Assembly (NCBI GenBank): GCA_964543215.1
Contig: CAZIXN010000002.1
Location: 1-41,507 of the forward strand
Origin: an uncultured Phycisphaera sp.
Lineage (GTDB): Bacteria; Planctomycetota; Phycisphaerae; Phycisphaerales; Phycisphaeraceae
DNA: 41,507 nt
Reading direction: 5' to 3'
In this document: one piece after another, positions 3,589-41,507 of the stretch
Position numbering within the stretch: position 1 is the stretch's first letter
Layout of the letters: every line of letters starts with the position of its first letter
The notes under the pieces: model-generated
Seen by the model: the letters and a program-made list of their open reading frames with translations, nothing else
Databases searched by the model: none
Told to the model about the DNA's origin: nothing
Position numbers and translations under genes: made by a program

Positions 3589-4125
3589 TCACGCTTTGTC
3601 GGTGCGCTCCAACGCCCAAGCGCCCACGACGTTCACGCGCTCCGCCCCCGCCGCGCGATCCGCCAGCGCGTGCGCGACGTGCGCGTGCAGGCATTTGATC
3701 CTGCTGGCGTCGGCAACCCCGCCCACGCCCACGTCGCGCAGCGCCGCCGTCCAGCCCAGCGCTTCGATGGCCTCGAGCTGCGCTTCGCTCAGCAACGCCC
3801 ACCGCGCCGCGGCGTAACGCCCGTGATCCGCCGCCACCGCCGCCGCGAACGTTTCGTCCTGTTCCACAAGGGTTTCGAGCCGTTTGACCCACCCCTGCCG
3901 CTCCAGGTCCGCCACCGCGCGGTGCAACGGCCCGTCACGCAGCCAGTAAAGCGTCGGGAACGGCGCGATCGGCGTCGTGCCATCGGAGGCGAACTTCAGC
4001 GGGAAGACGGTTTCGATTTTGGATTTTGGATTTTGGATTTTGGATTGGCCCGCAGGCAGATCGTGATGCGGCGGAGCCGGCAATCCAAAATCCTCATTCA
4101 AAAATTCAAAATCGCCGACCTTCAC
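3589..4125 (-). CDS. DUF501 domain protein (start uncertain)
   Basis: PFPTLYWLRDGPL and GVGGVADASRIKCLHAHVAHALA match DUF501. No in-frame ATG exists. An in-frame GTG at 4125 overlaps the upstream gene's TGA (GTGA), but this would place the heptad hairpin inside the N-terminal coding region. The 581-aa track ORF (3589..5334) is a read-through artefact. Confidence 0.6.
   Translation of the reverse strand: MKVGDFEFLNEDFGLPAPPHHDLPAGQSKIQNPKSKIETVFPLKFASDGTTPIAPFPTLYWLRDGPLHRAVADLERQGWVKRLETLVEQDETFAAAVAADHGRYAAARWALLSEAQLEAIEALGWTAALRDVGVGGVADASRIKCLHAHVAHALADRAAGAERVNVVGAWALERTDKA
4015..4113. repeat. ORF-less hairpin built from heptanucleotide tandem repeats (GATTTTG)n
   Basis: The left arm at 4015-4048 is gattttg x4 followed by gattgg. 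The right arm is at 4081-4113. A 13-bp perfect core (ggattttggattg / caatccaaaatcc) has an imperfect extension. The loop is about 32 nt. Confidence 0.85.
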
Positions 4126-5290: not shown

Positions 5291-5734
5291 GGGTTCGGGG
5301 AACCGGGAACTGGGATCAGGTAGGAAAGCGTCATGGATCAGGCGAGTTATCGGAAGTTGAACGCGTGGCAGAAGGCGATGGATGCGTTCGATGCCGTGTA
5401 TGCGTTGTCGCGGGGTTTTCCTGCCGATGAACGCTTCGGGTTGACGCCGCAAGTGCGACGCGCCGCTTTGTCCGTACCTTCGAATATCGCCGAAGGCTAC
5501 GGACGGAAACATCGAAAGGCTTACCTGCAACACCTGTAAATCGCTCGCGGCTCGCTGATGGAGGTCGAAACCCAACTGATCGCCGCCGTGCGACAGAACA
5601 TGTGTTCCCGGGATCAGGCCAAGCCGGTCTGGGAAGCCTTGCAGGAAGTCGGACGATTGCTCAACGGCCTGATCCGATCCCTGGAAAACCGCCCGGACGC
5701 GACACCCGACCCCTGATCCCCGTTCCCCGAACCC
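5291..5734. repeat. Inverted-repeat-bounded cassette A (arms 5291-5320 and 5712-5734) enclosing a 4HB ORF
   Basis: gggttcggggaac (5291-5303) is complementary to gttccccgaaccc (5722-5734). gggatcagg (5312-5320) is complementary to cctgatccc (5712-5720). An 8-nt bulge interrupts the left arm. The arms are G-rich repeats of about 7 nt (gggttcg/gggaacc/gggaact/gggatca). Confidence 0.8.
5333..5716 (+). pseudogene. four-helix-bundle protein (23S rRNA intervening-sequence protein / Avd-like family) interrupted by an in-frame TAA
   Basis: The 5333-5536 part encodes KLNAWQKAMD...ERFGLTPQVRRAALSVPSNIAEGYGRKHRKAYLQHL. A TAA follows at 5537-5539. The same frame continues IARGSLMEVETQLIAAV... to TGA at 5714-5716. 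The family motif (F/L)LxIAxGSxxExxxxL spans the stop. Confidence 0.8.
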
Positions 5735-11635: not shown

Positions 11636-12466
11636 ATGCCCATCCCCACCGCCCTCTTCGACCTCACCGGACAGACCGCCCTCATCACCGGCGGGGCCTC
11701 GGGCATCGGCCTGGCCATCGCCGAGGCCTTCGTCATGCACGGCGGCAAGGTCATCGTCGGCTCACGCACCGTCGAAAAAGTCCAGGCCGCCGTCGACCGA
11801 CTCAACAAGCTCGACTCCCCCCACCCCCACGACGACGCCGAACCCGTCGCCGCCGGCGTCGCGCTGGATGTCGAAGACCAGAAATCCGTCGATCACGCCG
11901 TGAAAAAATGCATCGACATCCACGGCGGGCTGCACGTCGCCGTCAACTCCGCCGGCATCATGTGCAAGAAGGACACCTTCGAACTAAAGGCCGACGAAAT
12001 CAACCAGCTCTTCAACATCCACGTCACCGGCGCGCTGCGCGTCAGCCAGTCCGCCGGCCACGTCTTCCGCGAACAGCACCAGGGCCTGATCCTCAACATC
12101 GCCTCCATCTCCAGCTTCGTCGACCTCACCGGCGTCACCGCCTACGCCGCCGCCAAAAACGCGATGCTCGGCCTCACCCGCAGCCTCGCCAACGAATGGG
12201 CCAAGTTCGGCATCCGCTGCAACGGCATCGCGCCCGGATTCGTCCCCACCGACATCAACCGCAAAATGATCGAAGGTACCGACCGCGGACGACGCATCCT
12301 CGAACACACCCCGATGGCCCGCTTCGGCACCGCCGACGAAATCGCCGGCGCCGCCGTGTATCTCGCCAGCCCCGCCGGCAAATTCGTCAACGGCCACACG
12401 ATCGTGGTCGACGGCGGATATTTGGCCTGCGGCATCGGCGACAGCGTCGCGCCGTGGGCGGAGTGA
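11636..12466 (+). CDS. SDR family oxidoreductase (FabG / gluconate-5-dehydrogenase-like)
   Basis: TALITGGASGIGLAIAEAF is the TGxxxGxG motif. YAAAK is the catalytic YxxxK. The PGFVPTD block is also present. Confidence 0.85.
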   Translation: MPIPTALFDLTGQTALITGGASGIGLAIAEAFVMHGGKVIVGSRTVEKVQAAVDRLNKLDSPHPHDDAEPVAAGVALDVEDQKSVDHAVKKCIDIHGGLHVAVNSAGIMCKKDTFELKADEINQLFNIHVTGALRVSQSAGHVFREQHQGLILNIASISSFVDLTGVTAYAAAKNAMLGLTRSLANEWAKFGIRCNGIAPGFVPTDINRKMIEGTDRGRRILEHTPMARFGTADEIAGAAVYLASPAGKFVNGHTIVVDGGYLACGIGDSVAPWAE

Positions 12467-12506
12467 CATAAACCAAGTATTTAGAGCGATTTGCATGATT
12501 TCTGGC

Positions 12507-12592
12507 CAGTGGCACAGGCTTCCAGCCGGTGATTCTCGAAGCGAAAACGTTCGGCCTGACGGCCGATCACAGGCTGGAAGCCTGTGCCACTG
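12507..12592. repeat. Long palindromic element (27-bp stem, one mismatch)
   Basis: cagtggcacaggcttccagccggtgat (12507-12533) is complementary to atcacaggctggaagcctgtgccactg (12566-12592). The loop is 32 nt. An outer 7-bp pair is ttagagc (12481-12487) / gctctaa (12605-12611). It lies just after the SDR stop, at the edge of the low-GC islet. Confidence 0.85.
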
Positions 12593-12638
12593 ATGACGCA
12601 AAGTGCTCTAACTGCTAGAAATCAAGTAGTTTGATGAT

Positions 12639-12857
12639 ATGGACTCGCCACGTTCCTACCACGTCAGCGACGGCGACTGGCTGCTTACGTTCACTGAAGA
12701 CGACGATGGCTGGTATTGCATCACCTGCCCGTCGATGCCCGGACTCGTGACCCAGGCGCGAACGCTTGCCGAGGGATTCGAGATGGCGCGAGACGCCCGC
12801 GACCTGCTGATGCGCGGTCGTCAAAAACGAAAGGAACTGGACCCATCAAACCCGTGA
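12639..12857 (+). CDS. HicB-like antitoxin-fold protein (UPF0150 / HicB N-terminal domain only, no DNA-binding domain)
   Basis: LLTFTEDDDGWYCITCPSMPGLVTQARTLAEGFEMARDARDLLM matches the HicB core (..DEDGGY.A.VP.LPGC.TQG.TLEEA..N..EAI.L.L). The protein is 72 aa. GC is clearly below the flanks. Confidence 0.7.
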   Translation: MDSPRSYHVSDGDWLLTFTEDDDGWYCITCPSMPGLVTQARTLAEGFEMARDARDLLMRGRQKRKELDPSNP

Positions 12858-13351
12858 ACTTCAAAGTGCGTGGTCCACTTGATATTCCGCACTGGAAATT
12901 ACGCGGTGGCCGTTCCATCGATTCAGCGTGTGCCATCGAGTTTTTCGGTTGGTATCCGCACCTGCGAACCGCTAAAGGGGTTTATGTCTTCGGGATGCGG
13001 TTCGGTGCGAAGGTTCGGCCGTATTATGTCGGGAAAGCCACCAAAACTTTTGGGCAAGAAGTGTTCGCGCCGACCAAGCTGGTGCATTACAACCACGCGA
13101 TGGCCAATCAAAAACTCGGTACGCCGTGCTTGTTTCTAGTCGTTGCTCCCCGACACGGTGCCACTCCGCAGTTGATCGGCCACGCCGAACGCGAACTGAT
13201 TCGGATGGCCGCCCAGGCCAATCCGAATCTCTGCAATAAAGTCGGCATCAAGCCACCTCGCTGGGCCATCCAGGGCGTTATTCGCGGCAACGCCGGCGGC
13301 AAGTCGGCGTCTGCCAAAGCTTTTGCCAAAACCTTCGGGCTGGATGGCTGA
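12854..13351 (+). CDS. GIY-YIG-like domain protein (putative nuclease), translationally coupled to the HicB-like gene
   Basis: The GTG at 12854 overlaps the hicB-like TGA (GTGA). KGVYVFGMRFGAKVRPYYVGKAT resembles UvrC GVY...IYVGKA. A downstream block HAERELIRMAAQANPNLCNK supplies the conserved Glu...Asn. GC is about 55%. The longer track ORF from 12716 overlaps the hicB-like gene out of frame and is rejected. Confidence 0.6.
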   Translation: MNFKVRGPLDIPHWKLRGGRSIDSACAIEFFGWYPHLRTAKGVYVFGMRFGAKVRPYYVGKATKTFGQEVFAPTKLVHYNHAMANQKLGTPCLFLVVAPRHGATPQLIGHAERELIRMAAQANPNLCNKVGIKPPRWAIQGVIRGNAGGKSASAKAFAKTFGLDG

Positions 13352-13397
13352 TCGCGCTGCCTACGGTGAGACGTTCACTCTCACCGAGGAGTTTCCC

Positions 13398-14942: not shown

Positions 14943-15029
14943 GCAGCAGCTAGAAGCTAGAAGCTAGGAGCAAGCTGGAAGCTCGTTGACTTTGCTCGGC
15001 CTTCTAACTTCTAGCTTCTTGCTTCTTCC
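14943..15029. repeat. ORF-less hairpin built from heptanucleotide tandem repeats (GCTAGAA)n
   Basis: The left arm is gctagaagctagaagctaggagcaagctggaagc (14949-14982). The right arm is ggccttctaacttctagcttcttgcttcttcc (14998-15029). The 12-bp perfect core pairs agaagctagaag (14952-14963) with cttctagcttct (15008-15019), with imperfect extensions. The right arm encodes the TatC C-terminal tail. Confidence 0.8.
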
Positions 15030-19071: not shown

Positions 19072-19188
19072 GGAACCACGGATGAACTCGGATGAACACG
19101 GATGGACACCGATCGTCCGTGGCAAGTGGCCCAACCGTGTCTTTCAGCTCTTGTCCATCTGTGCTCATCTGTGTTCATCCGTGGTTCC
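19072..19188. repeat. ORF-less hairpin built from about 10-nt tandem repeats (CGGATGAACN)n
   Basis: The left arm is ggaaccacggatgaactcggatgaacacggatggacac (19072-19109). The right arm is gtccatctgtgctcatctgtgttcatccgtggttcc (19153-19188). The outer 16 bp are perfect (ggaaccacggatgaac / gttcatccgtggttcc) and the inner part is imperfect. The loop is about 43 nt. Confidence 0.85.
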
Positions 19189-19239: not shown

Positions 19240-19968
19240 ATGCCGATAGTGCTTGCCTCGCCCCTGCCCTCCGGGACCCACCCACCCATGAACGACGCCG
19301 CCTCGCCCTCCGCCGACCTGCCCGCCCCCGACGCCGTCGCCCCGCCCGCCGGCCCGATCCGCGCGACCATCAGCGGAGGCTACCGCGTCCGCCTGCTCAT
19401 CCTCGCGCTGGGCCTGCTCGCGTTCGCCGGCTGGTCCCTCTACGACGGCATTTACGCCTGGCCGAAAAAACAAGCCATGTACGAAGACCTCCAGGTTTTC
19501 ATGGAGCAGCACGACGACTGGCAGACCCGCTGGTCCGACCACGCCCGCGCCCAGGGCTACCCCGAGTCGGTCGTCAAGAACCCCACCAAACTCAAGCCCC
19601 TGGACAAATACGACATCGCCACGCAGTACGGCATGGCCGCCGTCTGCGGACCCATCGGCCTGTGGTTCGCGTACTGCTGGTTCGCCGCCGGCCGACGCTA
19701 CGTCGAGGCCGACGAACGCGGCGTCCGCACCCACGCCAACGTCGATCTCACCTGGACCCAGATCGAAAAGATCGAAGACGACCGCTGGAAGTCCAAGGGC
19801 ATCGCCTATCTGAAATACGCCGGCGACCAACGCATCCTCCTGGACGACTGGAAATTCGACCGCGACGCGACGACCGCGATCTACAAACTCGCGGAGTCGA
19901 AAATGGCAGGAAATCAAGAAAATCGGGAAAAGCCTGAAAATCAAGAAAATCCGGACAAGCTGCCGTGA
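19240..19968 (+). CDS. hypothetical membrane protein (two predicted TM helices)
   Basis: ATG at 19240, with an alternative at 19288. TM segments are VRLLILALGLLAFAGWSLY and AAVCGPIGLWFAYCWFAA. The C-terminal tail AGNQENREKPENQENPDKLP is encoded by the repeat arm. Confidence 0.6.
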   Translation: MPIVLASPLPSGTHPPMNDAASPSADLPAPDAVAPPAGPIRATISGGYRVRLLILALGLLAFAGWSLYDGIYAWPKKQAMYEDLQVFMEQHDDWQTRWSDHARAQGYPESVVKNPTKLKPLDKYDIATQYGMAAVCGPIGLWFAYCWFAAGRRYVEADERGVRTHANVDLTWTQIEKIEDDRWKSKGIAYLKYAGDQRILLDDWKFDRDATTAIYKLAESKMAGNQENREKPENQENPDKLP

Positions 19969-20430
19969 GTCGGCGGGTCCGCGAGGAGTTGCTGGATCGT
20001 TTCCTTCTCTTTTCCGTTCGCATCCTTCGCCTCTGCCGAGTGCTTGACTCGGCTTCCGCCCCGCGAAGGCTGGTGGATCAGTTGGTCGGCTCCGGCACGT
20101 CTCCCGGCGCACAGATGGCCGAAGCCGACGAAGCGATGAGCGATCGCGATTATCTGAAATCGGTACGCATCGCTCTCAAAGAACTCGGCGAATGCCGCTA
20201 TTGGCTCCGACTGATCACCGACGCCGAGTTGGTTCCCACGCATCAACTCGAAGACCTGATCCGTGAATGCGATGAACTTCGCGCGATACTTCGCACCATT
20301 TCCCATCGAACCAAAGACAACCTCGATCAATCCAATCGCTGAAGCCTCGGGTGTCCCAAGCTTCGTCCCCCTTTCATCAATTCCCCCTTTTCCAAATTTT
20401 CCTGATTTTCTTGATTTTCTTGATTTTCCT
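19909..20430. repeat. Inverted-repeat-bounded cassette B (arms about 19909-19955 and 20385-20430) enclosing a 4HB ORF
   Basis: gaaaatcaagaaaatc (19936-19951) is perfectly complementary to gattttcttgattttc (20404-20419, and again at 20413-20428). The arms are tandem GATTTTC-type units of about 7-9 nt. Confidence 0.8.
19965..20342 (+). CDS. four-helix-bundle protein (23S rRNA intervening-sequence protein / Avd-like family)
   Basis: REELLDRFLLFSVRILRLCRVL...VDQLVGSGTSPGAQMAEADEAMSDRDYLKSVRIALKELGECRYWLRLI matches the TIGR02436-type pattern (..QL.RS.tS.GAN..EA......DF..K..IA.KE..Et.YWL.L). The GTG start overlaps the upstream TGA (GTGA). Confidence 0.8.
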   Translation: MSRRVREELLDRFLLFSVRILRLCRVLDSASAPRRLVDQLVGSGTSPGAQMAEADEAMSDRDYLKSVRIALKELGECRYWLRLITDAELVPTHQLEDLIRECDELRAILRTISHRTKDNLDQSNR

Positions 20431-20435
20431 CAGTT

Positions 20436-21908
20436 TTACGTTTGCGAAGCAACCGCCCGCAGCTCCGGCGACACCACCTCCCGCCACAGAATCTTCAAAC
20501 ACGCCGCCGCCGGGATCGCGATCAGCAGGCCCAGCAATCCCGCCAGCGATCCGCCGATCAGCACGACCAGCAGCACCGTCAGCGCATCAAGGTTCGTCGC
20601 CTTGCCCTGCACGATCGGCTCGACGACGTACGCATCGAGGCTCTGCGCCACGATGAACACGATCGACGGCACGATCACCGCCCCCACCAGCGAGATCGAC
20701 TCGCCGTTCTGCAGGTTCAGCAGGCACGCCACGATCACCGTCGCCGGCCACACCACCAGCCCGACATACGGCACGAGCCCCAACACCCCGCCCGCCACGC
20801 CCAGCAACAGCGCAAAGGGCGCCGCATCCGTCAGCAGCAACCCCAGCGTCAGCAACACCGCCATGATGCTGCCCTGAATCAGCCGGCCGCGGATGAACGC
20901 CGACACCGACCGGTCCATCATCCCCAGGATTTCGTAGGTCCGCCGCTTCTTGCTCTGCGGCACGTACGGATCGAACCAGCTCACGAAATCGCGGAAACGC
21001 CAGGTCGCAAAGAAAAACACGAACGCCACCACCACCACAAACACCGACAGATAGCCGATCGCACCGAACACCGAACCCACCGCCCCGGCCCCCAGGTCCA
21101 ACGCCGTGCTGCTCGCCTGGGCCACCGCCTTCCAGTTCACGTCGCTCAGCGAGCCGGTCAGCGAATCCAGGAACGACCCGCCCGACTCGGCGTCGCTCGG
21201 AGCCGAACCCGGCGACACCGCATCCACCACCGCATCCACCACCGCGTCCGACATCGCCGACAGGTCGCCCGTCTCCACCGATTCGCTGCTCGCGCCGGCT
21301 TCGCCGACGCCCCCGCTTGCGACGTGGTCGTTGGCCGCGGTCGCCGACGCCTCCGCCGATGCCGGCTCGCCTTCGCCCGATGCCGGCTTGCCGGACTTGT
21401 CGAAAAACGAGTGCGCCACCACGTCCAACTGCTTCAGCGTCGCCGACAACCACTGCACCGCCGGATCGACCACCGCCGGCAGATCGTCCCGGTTCGCAAG
21501 ATCGTGAATCGTCGCGGGGATCCGCTGCAGCAGCTGCAGCGCCTGCCAAAGCATGATCGGGATCAGCACGAGCAACCCCGCCACGACCACGCCCAGCGAC
21601 CCGAGCATCCCCGCCGCCGTCACCGGCCGAGGCACGCGGAACCGCTGGTGCAGATACGTCACCGCCGGGTTGAGGATGTACGCCAGCGTCAGCCCCACGA
21701 GAATCGGCGTGAGCACCGGGCGGGTCGCGTACACCAGCCGGAACACCGCCGGCACCACGTACGACAACACCGTCATCACCACGATCACGCCCAGGCTCAC
21801 CTGAAACCAGCGCACCCGCCAGAGCGGAACCTGCGGCCGGCCCAGCGGGTCGTAGTCCCGCGGTGAATCAGATCCCGAAGAAGCAACGTCGTGCGGCGTG
21901 TCGGACAT
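20436..21908 (-). CDS. AI-2E family transporter (PerM / UPF0118) with a low-complexity insertion
   Basis: Multi-TM protein. The C-terminal region reads YVGLVVWPATVIV...IVFIVAQSLDAYVVEPIVQGKATNLDALTVLLVVLIGGSLAGLLGLLIAIP, typical of UPF0118. An Ala/Ser/Gly/Asp-rich insert of about 100 aa is present. Confidence 0.8.
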   Translation of the reverse strand: MSDTPHDVASSGSDSPRDYDPLGRPQVPLWRVRWFQVSLGVIVVMTVLSYVVPAVFRLVYATRPVLTPILVGLTLAYILNPAVTYLHQRFRVPRPVTAAGMLGSLGVVVAGLLVLIPIMLWQALQLLQRIPATIHDLANRDDLPAVVDPAVQWLSATLKQLDVVAHSFFDKSGKPASGEGEPASAEASATAANDHVASGGVGEAGASSESVETGDLSAMSDAVVDAVVDAVSPGSAPSDAESGGSFLDSLTGSLSDVNWKAVAQASSTALDLGAGAVGSVFGAIGYLSVFVVVVAFVFFFATWRFRDFVSWFDPYVPQSKKRRTYEILGMMDRSVSAFIRGRLIQGSIMAVLLTLGLLLTDAAPFALLLGVAGGVLGLVPYVGLVVWPATVIVACLLNLQNGESISLVGAVIVPSIVFIVAQSLDAYVVEPIVQGKATNLDALTVLLVVLIGGSLAGLLGLLIAIPAAACLKILWREVVSPELRAVASQT

Positions 21909-41212: not shown

Positions 41213-41257
41213 GAAACCGCCGTTTTGTGCGCCTTTGCGGCGCGGCGCATTGCCTTG

Positions 41258-41350
41258 CAGCCGCAGGTCAACGACCTGCGCGTGCTCGGCGTGTCGCAGT
41301 GTGGTTGGGATTGCGACACTCGCTCCGCGCAGGCCGTTGACCTGCGGCTG
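41258..41350. repeat. REP-like long palindrome (25-bp outer stem with one mismatch plus an 8-bp inner stem)
   Basis: cagccgcaggtcaacgacctgcgcg (41258-41282) is complementary to cgcgcaggccgttgacctgcggctg (41326-41350). The inner pair is gtgtcgca (41291-41298) / tgcgacac (41312-41319). The right arm is shared with 17410-17440. Confidence 0.85.
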
Positions 41351-41507
41351 CGGATCTGGACGGGGGTGTCGGTCGTTCCGTGCGCAAGTTTGGGGTGCGG
41401 GGCTTGACCGGTGGGTAGCTTTGGTTGCAGACGCAGTTGGCCGATCCGCGGAGTGGCGGGGTGGATTGAGTTTCGCTTTCGGGTTCGAGGGGGTCGTGAA
41501 CACACCA

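Follow-up and report, generated by a model that had tools for sequence, protein, structure and literature searches.

A HicB-like gene overlapping a member of a large GIY-YIG-like family in a low-GC islet of an uncultured Phycisphaera

Two overlapping genes in a low-GC islet

We examined a 41,507-nucleotide stretch of DNA from an uncultured Phycisphaera sp. (contig CAZIXN010000002.1; the whole stretch is referred to below as the window), and within it an islet of low guanine–cytosine (GC) content in which two small, adjacent, co-oriented open reading frames (ORFs) overlap by 4 nt: ORF1, which codes for a HicB-like protein, and ORF2, which codes for a protein with a GIY-YIG-nuclease-like core (Table 1). 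An initial annotation, made from the sequence alone, had read the two as a module in which a HicB-fold protein partners a GIY-YIG nuclease-like protein, and had proposed them as a candidate non-canonical toxin–antitoxin or defence pair acquired horizontally. The analysis described here points instead to a pairing that looks like a local one-off, attached to a gene family that stands alone in nearly all other genomes sampled.

Table 1. Features of the islet, with their positions in the window
Feature	Position	Strand	Remarks
Low-GC islet	12467..13397	no strand	from the SDR (short-chain dehydrogenase/reductase) gene (stop 12466) to the pterin-4a-carbinolamine dehydratase gene (start 13398)
Hairpin/palindrome	12507..12592	no strand	arms 12507-12533 / 12566-12592; intergenic, just 3' of the SDR gene
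ORF1, 72 aa	12639..12857	+	HicB-like; predicted N-terminal antitoxin fold only, no DNA-binding domain, no hicA partner
GTGA overlap	12854..12857	+	ORF2 GTG 12854-12856 over ORF1 TGA 12855-12857, read from the sequence
ORF2, 165 aa	12854..13351	+	large unnamed family, GIY-YIG-nuclease-like core

The islet stands out clearly by composition. Measured in 300-bp windows, GC is 0.55-0.56 over 12450-13050 and 0.59 from there to 13350, with flanks at 0.64-0.71, and the value for 12467-13351 (0.564) is the lowest among all 885-bp windows of the 41.5-kb window (mean 0.665, standard deviation 0.027). GC at third codon positions (GC3) is 0.71 in ORF1 and 0.63 in ORF2, and 0.89-0.90 in five flanking genes. 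These values reproduce the drop to 55-60% between the palindrome and about position 13350 that had been described before, and the composition supports the suggestion that the islet is foreign.

The overlap of the ORF1 stop with the ORF2 start is also as initially annotated, and suggests from the sequence that translation of the two genes may be coupled. Homologs align with ORF2 from residue 2, and we therefore take GTG 12854 to be the true start of ORF2 and the 4-nt overlap to be real. The public gene call for ORF2 (P0001, 118 aa) begins at Met48, which removes the GIY strand; the GTG is the start that annotation of ORF2 should use. The previously reported second ORF stands, except that its stated length of 166 aa corresponds to 165 aa plus the stop codon.

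ORF1, a predicted minimal HicB-fold protein

Sequence and structure comparisons place ORF1 with the N-terminal domain of HicB, the antitoxin of the HicAB type II toxin–antitoxin systems. The best profile match is PHROGs entry phrog_497, "toxin-antitoxin system HicB-like" (E 5.7e-8), followed by PF15919 (HicB_lk_antitox) in Pfam (E 0.0095), whose 16.5 bits fall short of the gathering score, 27. With phmmer, the whole set of PDB sequences yielded three matches, every one of them a HicB antitoxin (6u0i, 6hpb and 6g1c; E 0.04). A single-sequence AlphaFold2 (AF2) model with a mean predicted local distance difference test score (pLDDT) of 82.8 contains a long helix and four strands, in keeping with the partial RNase-H-like fold of HicB, in which one helix packs an antiparallel sheet. 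When this model is compared with the PDB by Foldseek, its five best matches are all HicB, with probability 0.98-0.99 and a root-mean-square deviation of 1.0-1.9 A over 40-43 residues; the accompanying E-values of 0.2-0.5 are high because the domain is tiny. HicB entries are thus both the best and the only matches of ORF1, by sequence as well as by structure, and the protein shares with them the core beta-strands and helix and the motif hydrophobic strand - DDGWY - P.xPG.xTQ - T.xE. Together, the profile matches and the model show ORF1 to be, as far as prediction can carry, a minimal HicB-fold protein, in agreement with the initial description of a 72-aa ORF (recovered with its exact sequence) that has the HicB core and no DNA-binding domain.

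Several features set ORF1 apart from canonical HicB. It ends after the helix, and has neither the strand that follows it nor a C-terminal ribbon–helix–helix (RHH) or helix–turn–helix (HTH) DNA-binding domain; its last ~15 residues (58-72, RGRQKRKELDPSNP) are modelled at pLDDT 50-64. The C-terminal DNA-binding domain is not universal among short HicB-like proteins, and Foldseek finds one such protein of nearly the same size that lacks it, TTHA1013 (1wv8, 71 aa). Unlike in HicAB systems, the downstream partner is a GIY-YIG-like protein and no hicA lies beside the gene: upstream there are only the hairpin and the SDR gene, and the alternative-frame ORFs have no HicA match. A word-indexed search of 5.8 billion proteins detected no close relatives of ORF1.

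The large unnamed family of ORF2 and its GIY-YIG-like core

ORF2 has no match in Pfam, NCBIfam, PADLOC or PHROGs. Exhaustive phmmer searching nonetheless places it in a large family, with at least 883 representative clusters (50% identity) at E<=1e-3 and 388 at E<=1e-10, spread over at least a dozen phyla. Nearly all members are 165-175 aa long, a typical one being ~167 aa. More than 700 family proteins were also retrieved by profile search; those with a name are all called "hypothetical protein", and none carries a precomputed Pfam domain.

The motifs from which the GIY-YIG likeness was first proposed, GVYVF (residues 42-46), RPYYVGKA (55-62) and the later block ERELIRMAAQANPNLCNK (112-129), are all present and include highly conserved positions of the family. 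Among 266 aligned members, the first half-motif, G42-V-Y44, has both its Gly and its Tyr at 99%, followed by F46 at 97%, and the second, Y58-V-G60-K61, is preceded by P56 (98%) and conserved at 99%, 100% and 82% for Y58, G60 and K61. Beyond the hairpin, E69 (99%), K75 (89%), Y79 (91%) and W137 (94%) are widely shared, and the Glu and Asn positions expected of the GIY-YIG nucleases are nearly invariant (E112 100%, N123 97%, N128 98%). An AF2 model built with 100 sequences (pLDDT 93.4) shows a core of strand 42-50, strand 53-62, helix 66-69, helix 73-85, strand 90-97 and helix 105-122, which is the beta-beta-alpha-alpha-beta-alpha order of the GIY-YIG domain, and places the GIY and YIG half-motifs on the two strands of a beta-hairpin, 42-50 and 53-62.

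Structure and profile comparisons point in the same direction. The compact Foldseek matches of the ORF2 model in the PDB are the GIY-YIG domains of UvrC (1yd2, 1ycz and 1yd6; target-normalised TM score 0.50-0.56, probability up to 0.63, E 0.16-0.5), and the same search also lists R.Eco29kI and the PD-T4-3 nuclease (9u75, E 0.68). Among the predicted viral structures of BFVD, GIY-YIG homing endonucleases dominate the matches, with a best E of 6.4e-3 and probability up to 1.0. Aligned by hhalign to the N-terminal sequence of T. maritima UvrC, which is identical to 1ycz over residues 1-93, the family profile matches with a probability of 61-67% and E 5-8e-5 across the hairpin (GVYVFG...PYYVGKATK / GVYIFKNKG.VPIYIGKAKR), so that G42-V-Y44 and Y58-V-G60 of ORF2 pair with G17-V-Y19 and Y29-I-G31 of UvrC. 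At low confidence, a relaxed alignment further sets E112 on UvrC E76, K75 on R39 and Y79 on Y43, and a global one sets N128 on N88. The only Pfam family to recur among 100 members is PF01541, found weakly in 2/100 (E >= 0.037). Two other comparisons were discarded: searching the family profile against the PDB gave chance matches only, such as the VPS4 MIT domain, and hhalign against I-TevI gave a spurious match only.

Measured against the GIY-YIG superfamily (UvrC 1ycz and 1yd6, I-TevI-type homing endonucleases, R.Eco29kI and R.Hpy188I), which supplies its best structural neighbours, ORF2 shares the hairpin with G-x-Y and Y-x-G-K, the topology, and an invariant Glu in the helix after the third strand followed by an invariant Asn. 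It differs in a hairpin longer by 4 residues; in a short helix or inserted turn, F-x-Q-E-x-F, that carries the invariant Glu69 in place of the canonical Arg; in an additional strand module at the N terminus, which is conserved (F3, G7, P8); and in a conserved C-terminal tail, W-x-I-x-G-V-x-R...G-K. Neither an adjacent methyltransferase nor an intron was found at ORF2, there is no PF01541 match, and no additional DNA-binding module or other Pfam domain (NUMOD, HTH, zinc finger, fusions) was detected in ORF2 or in 10 longer members. In being small, single-domain and an unusual active-site variant, ORF2 resembles R.Hpy188I (170 aa; PMC2630997). Converging weak evidence from sequence and model makes a GIY-YIG-type fold for ORF2 well supported, while formal membership of the superfamily falls short of proof, with the catalytic Arg missing from its usual position. 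The original assignment can be kept with respect to motif, topology and best structural neighbours. We regard the family as an undescribed divergent variant of a known superfamily, with a non-canonical active site and a distinctive genomic signature (described below), and as a more interesting result than the pair.

The pairing with a HicB-like gene is local within the sample

To survey the genomic context of the family, we collected loci by means of one degenerate DNA pattern encoding YVGK[A/T]xxxFxQE. Genome contigs yielded 93 loci and viral contigs 4, of which the family hidden Markov model (HMM) confirmed 52; metagenome contigs yielded 120, with 82 confirmed, and upstream sequence of 250 bp or more was available for 70. 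The 52 confirmed loci come from Acidobacteriota, Planctomycetota, Verrucomicrobiota, Myxococcota, Nitrospirota, Bacteroidota, Chloroflexota, Spirochaetota, Saccharimonadales and several proteobacterial classes. All same-strand upstream ORFs of the genome and viral loci, and then 109 small ones from both sets, were scanned with Pfam and PHROGs.

A HicB-like gene precedes the family gene in the window alone, and in none of the ~120 other loci (52 genome/viral and 70 metagenome); nor did a phmmer search with ORF1 find any match among all ORFs of the sampled loci. All-against-all BLAST of the ORFs within 3 kb on either side revealed no neighbour recurring in more than 3 loci, and those few were in related genomes. 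The closest homologs of ORF2 have other genes in front of them, namely a tetratricopeptide repeat (TPR) protein gene for P0004 (47-49% identity), a TPR-like protein gene for P0002 (39% identity) and an M61 peptidase gene for P0228. Elsewhere, most upstream genes have housekeeping or varied functions (for example DAHP synthase, Mg chelatase-like, tRNA synthetase, CoA transferase), with a minority of mobile or defence-type neighbours (resolvase, Abi_C, the S subunit of a type I restriction–modification system (Methylase_S), D12 methyltransferase, integrase/invertase, XRE-HTH regulators), and HEPN_AbiU2 and ParE near some members. The literature searched held no paper that pairs HicB with GIY-YIG.

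Within this sample, the HicB/GIY-YIG pairing looks like a local one-off unique to the lineage, and a conserved toxin–antitoxin system is unsupported. The two-gene module proposed in the initial annotation, for which co-occurrence of the homologs in other genomes had been named as a test, is not borne out as a recurring unit. Since the family occurs solo in nearly all genomes, it is also unlikely to be an obligate toxin in need of an antitoxin. We note separately that the TPR-like genes 5' of the two closest homologs lie on the same strand as the family gene (L001:3-329, L105:3131-3859), which could be coincidence or a sub-clade association.

Family genes are solo and low in GC

The low GC of the islet recurs at the family genes of other genomes. 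In 45/46 genome and viral loci the family gene is poorer in GC than its flanks, on average by 9.9 points and by as many as 28 (Wilcoxon p 4e-9), and so it is in 40/40 metagenome loci whose flanks were usable, there by 7.1 points on average, giving a gene-sized dip in 85/86 loci across many phyla. In the averaged GC profile the dip is limited to -100 to +600 nt from the gene start, and GC3 of the family gene is lower than that of the neighbouring long ORFs in 38/42 loci. This pattern makes the family gene a candidate new conflict or selfish element.

Three acidobacterial loci (L068:680-830, L089:2485-2620(-), L212:1040-1180(-)) have in common a conserved leader of ~120 nt directly 5' of the gene, in which CATAGAAT resembles, by eye, a -10 box and GGAGGAAA a ribosome-binding site; beyond the leader, the similarity of L089 to L068 and L212 ends. 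The sequence comparison suggests that the transferred unit may be the family gene together with its own promoter.

Among 72,556 plasmids, the family gene occurs only on 3 Ralstonia solanacearum megaplasmids, within a strain-specific island that also carries an IS256-family element and a group II intron and that varies as a whole. Adjacency to tRNA genes is not a feature of family loci, and a scan of metagenome contigs for a syntenic empty site, by way of the HD-domain neighbour, found no relatives. In being stand-alone and patchily distributed, with some copies in defence or mobile neighbourhoods, the family resembles PD-T4-3, a single-gene anti-phage GIY-YIG nuclease; unlike PD-T4-3, ORF2 has 165 rather than 248 aa, no PADLOC match, and a weak structural match to that protein. 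The simplest reading is that the family is a solo accessory gene that has been repeatedly transferred: solo contexts and the composition pattern are what we observe, and from these we infer mobility.

Interpretation and alternatives

We favour, with somewhat better than even confidence, a joint reading in which the islet is an operon of two genes acquired by horizontal transfer, its ORF2 being a member of a solo mobile GIY-YIG-type family to which the HicB-fold ORF1 was joined only in this lineage or its donor. ORF2 would then be a metal-dependent nucleic-acid endonuclease whose predicted active site combines the hairpin residues Tyr44 and Tyr58 with a metal-binding Glu112 and with Asn123/128; contact with the phosphate would fall to some other basic residue in place of the canonical Arg, with Lys75, Arg49 and Arg144 as candidates. 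The family would play a role in genetic conflict, either in defence or in selfish spread, each copy presenting itself as a low-GC dip the size of the gene, set among unrelated neighbours and lacking a conserved partner. ORF1, having presumably entered the transcription and translation unit of ORF2 through the GTGA overlap, may be a co-expressed inhibitor or modulator of ORF2, and would not be a general partner of the family, for which reason the pair would not constitute a conserved toxin–antitoxin or defence system. A role for ORF1 as a local inhibitor of ORF2 is possible; if true, it would mean that the HicB fold can be re-used against a toxin fold unrelated to HicA, and would add to the evidence that toxin and antitoxin modules interchange. 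As a pair, the two genes seem to be a one-off.

A bolder version of this reading, which we put forward tentatively and consider on the whole unlikely, would make the family an unrecognised class of solo GIY-YIG-type endonuclease genes: single-gene units, consisting of the gene and ~100 nt of its own leader, that spread horizontally into intergenic chromosomal sites across many bacterial phyla, either as a chromosomal analogue of free-standing homing endonucleases or as a one-gene defence nuclease. In the window, such a unit would have captured a HicB-fold protein as its dedicated inhibitor, the first HicB partner besides HicA.

A number of observations weigh against the joint reading. On the side of the fold, Foldseek against the PDB returned nothing at E<=1e-3 for ORF2, the hhalign match is confident over only 22 columns, ORF2 of the window has no Pfam match, and none of the GIY-YIG matches by structure or profile is conventionally significant. 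The canonical catalytic Arg of GIY-YIG domains sits in the helix after the YIG strand (R39 in UvrC, R27 in I-TevI); in ORF2 the corresponding position, ten residues past the YIG Tyr, is Q68, followed by E69, which bears out the earlier remark that the usual Arg could not be placed. With no DNA-binding module detected, a homing-endonuclease-like mechanism is unsupported. On the side of mobility, the GC of the family gene tracks host GC with a slope of ~0.5, so that part of the dip could reflect long residence and intrinsic bias rather than recent transfer, and the gene is found in none of 50,697 phage genomes. As for the solo picture, the sampling motif is carried by about a quarter of the family, the neighbours were called by a crude longest-ORF heuristic, and the 4-nt overlap favours some functional link between ORF1 and ORF2 that the solo picture does not explain.

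In another reading, the family would have a GIY-YIG-like fold with no nuclease activity, serving in binding or in a different chemistry, and the GC dip would stem from intrinsic sequence constraints rather than mobility. Such a reading would account for the weakness of every GIY-YIG match, for a Gln in 62% of the family at the canonical Arg position, with Glu69 next to it, and for the correlation of gene GC with host GC, and it has a precedent in MMSYN1_0777, an inactivated GIY-YIG-like protein (PMC13621843). We nevertheless find it highly doubtful: both Tyr, the Glu and the Asn are conserved at 97-100%, as in an active enzyme; the R.Hpy188I family includes GIY-YIG enzymes that are active with some active-site residues, among them the Arg, replaced or relocated (PMC2630997); and GC3 is lowered as well, so that amino-acid composition alone does not explain the dip.

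Two other explanations take a different view of ORF1. It could be the remnant of a decaying hicAB locus that has lost hicA and the C-terminal part of HicB and that happens to lie beside an unrelated solo gene, the GTGA having arisen from a frame running on to its first stop. That ORF1 spans only the HicB strands and helix alpha-1 and trails off into the low-confidence residues 58-72, that hicA is missing, that the ORF2 family has its own upstream region of ~100 nt elsewhere, and that the GC3 of the two genes differs somewhat would all fit a remnant; yet ORF1 is intact, with a clean profile match across the whole core, HicB-like proteins of ~70 aa with no DNA-binding domain are a known class (TTHA1013), and so precise a start/stop overlap is typical of operons, and we think decay unlikely. 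Conversely, the overlap, together with the foreign composition common to both genes, would be expected if ORF1 and ORF2 formed a genuine non-canonical type II toxin–antitoxin or defence pair, in which the HicB-fold protein binds and neutralises not HicA but a toxic GIY-YIG DNase. The N-terminal domain of HicB, to which ORF1 corresponds, suffices alone to inhibit HicA (PMC13621843), no hicA is there to claim it, the putative ORF2 active site is fully conserved, and the small XRE-HTH or antitoxin-like genes 5' of a few other members would be compatible with control partners that vary. Against this stand the complete lack of HicB-like upstream genes in the other loci sampled and the solo state of most members, whose protein is evidently tolerated with no antitoxin; moreover, ORF1 has no detectable close relatives with which co-evolution could be demonstrated and no DNA-binding domain for autoregulation, and neither PADLOC nor the literature searched offers a counterpart. 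We accordingly regard a genuine toxin–antitoxin pair as rather improbable, and retain the joint reading of a locally assembled operon.

Hairpins, islet borders and other features of the window

The long palindrome upstream of ORF1, reported in the initial annotation, is confirmed, with arms of 27 nt that are 96% complementary around a spacer of 32 nt, and its RNA fold has a z of -9. Hairpins of the same build occur at no fewer than 4 other intergenic sites of the window (4011-4114, 14945-15026, 19072-19188 and 41257-41351; arms of 25-37 nt, spacers of 30-43 nt), one of which, 14945-15026, lies between the convergent HD and TatC genes. Because hairpins of this build recur in the window, we assign the one in the islet to a genome-wide kind of intergenic structure and consider it most likely to be part of the SDR gene's end rather than of the two-gene module; as a class, the long intergenic hairpins may be terminators or repetitive extragenic palindromic (REP)-like elements found throughout the genome. 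A module-specific operator or the end of a mobile element was considered for the palindrome and rejected, given the similar hairpins in the window and given that a long hairpin upstream is not a general feature of family loci. Rfam gave no family match for the hairpin, only sub-threshold noise from microRNA hairpins. In three of the long hairpins of the window the arms consist of tandem heptamers (GGATTTT, GCTAGAA and CGGATGAA-like runs), and perfect palindromes resembling them (26-nt and 17-nt arms) are found within 300 nt downstream of the family gene in L044 (Phycisphaeraceae) and L052 (Verrucomicrobiota).

The edges of the islet show no target-site duplications and no terminal or direct repeats longer than 7 nt. 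No tRNA was found in the window, and hence no tRNA-adjacent integration site, and a simple scan of the islet for sigma-70 promoters and intrinsic terminators returned no sites. Between the ORF2 stop and the dehydratase start, a short hairpin (GGTGAGA-CGTTCAC-TCTCACC, 13365-13385) can be seen by eye; it has no T-run and was not called in the terminator scan.

The window matches a 42.6-kb stromatolite metagenome contig (ENA ERZ909567, project PRJNA315555). Five independent short-read Logan assemblies from the same project (L003-L007) all start in the right arm of the palindrome, at about window position 12581, where, as we read it, the inverted repeat interrupted the assemblies. The stretch with the second-lowest GC in the window, ~19550-20650 (~0.57), overlaps two unannotated ORFs (288 aa and 121 aa) for which Pfam has no match, adjoins the hairpin with 37-nt arms at 19072-19188, and may be another foreign islet. 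Finally, a 127-aa gene at ~5333-5716 (+) has precomputed matches to PF05635 (23S_rRNA_IVP) and PF22296 (bAvd), the accessory-protein type of diversity-generating retroelements.

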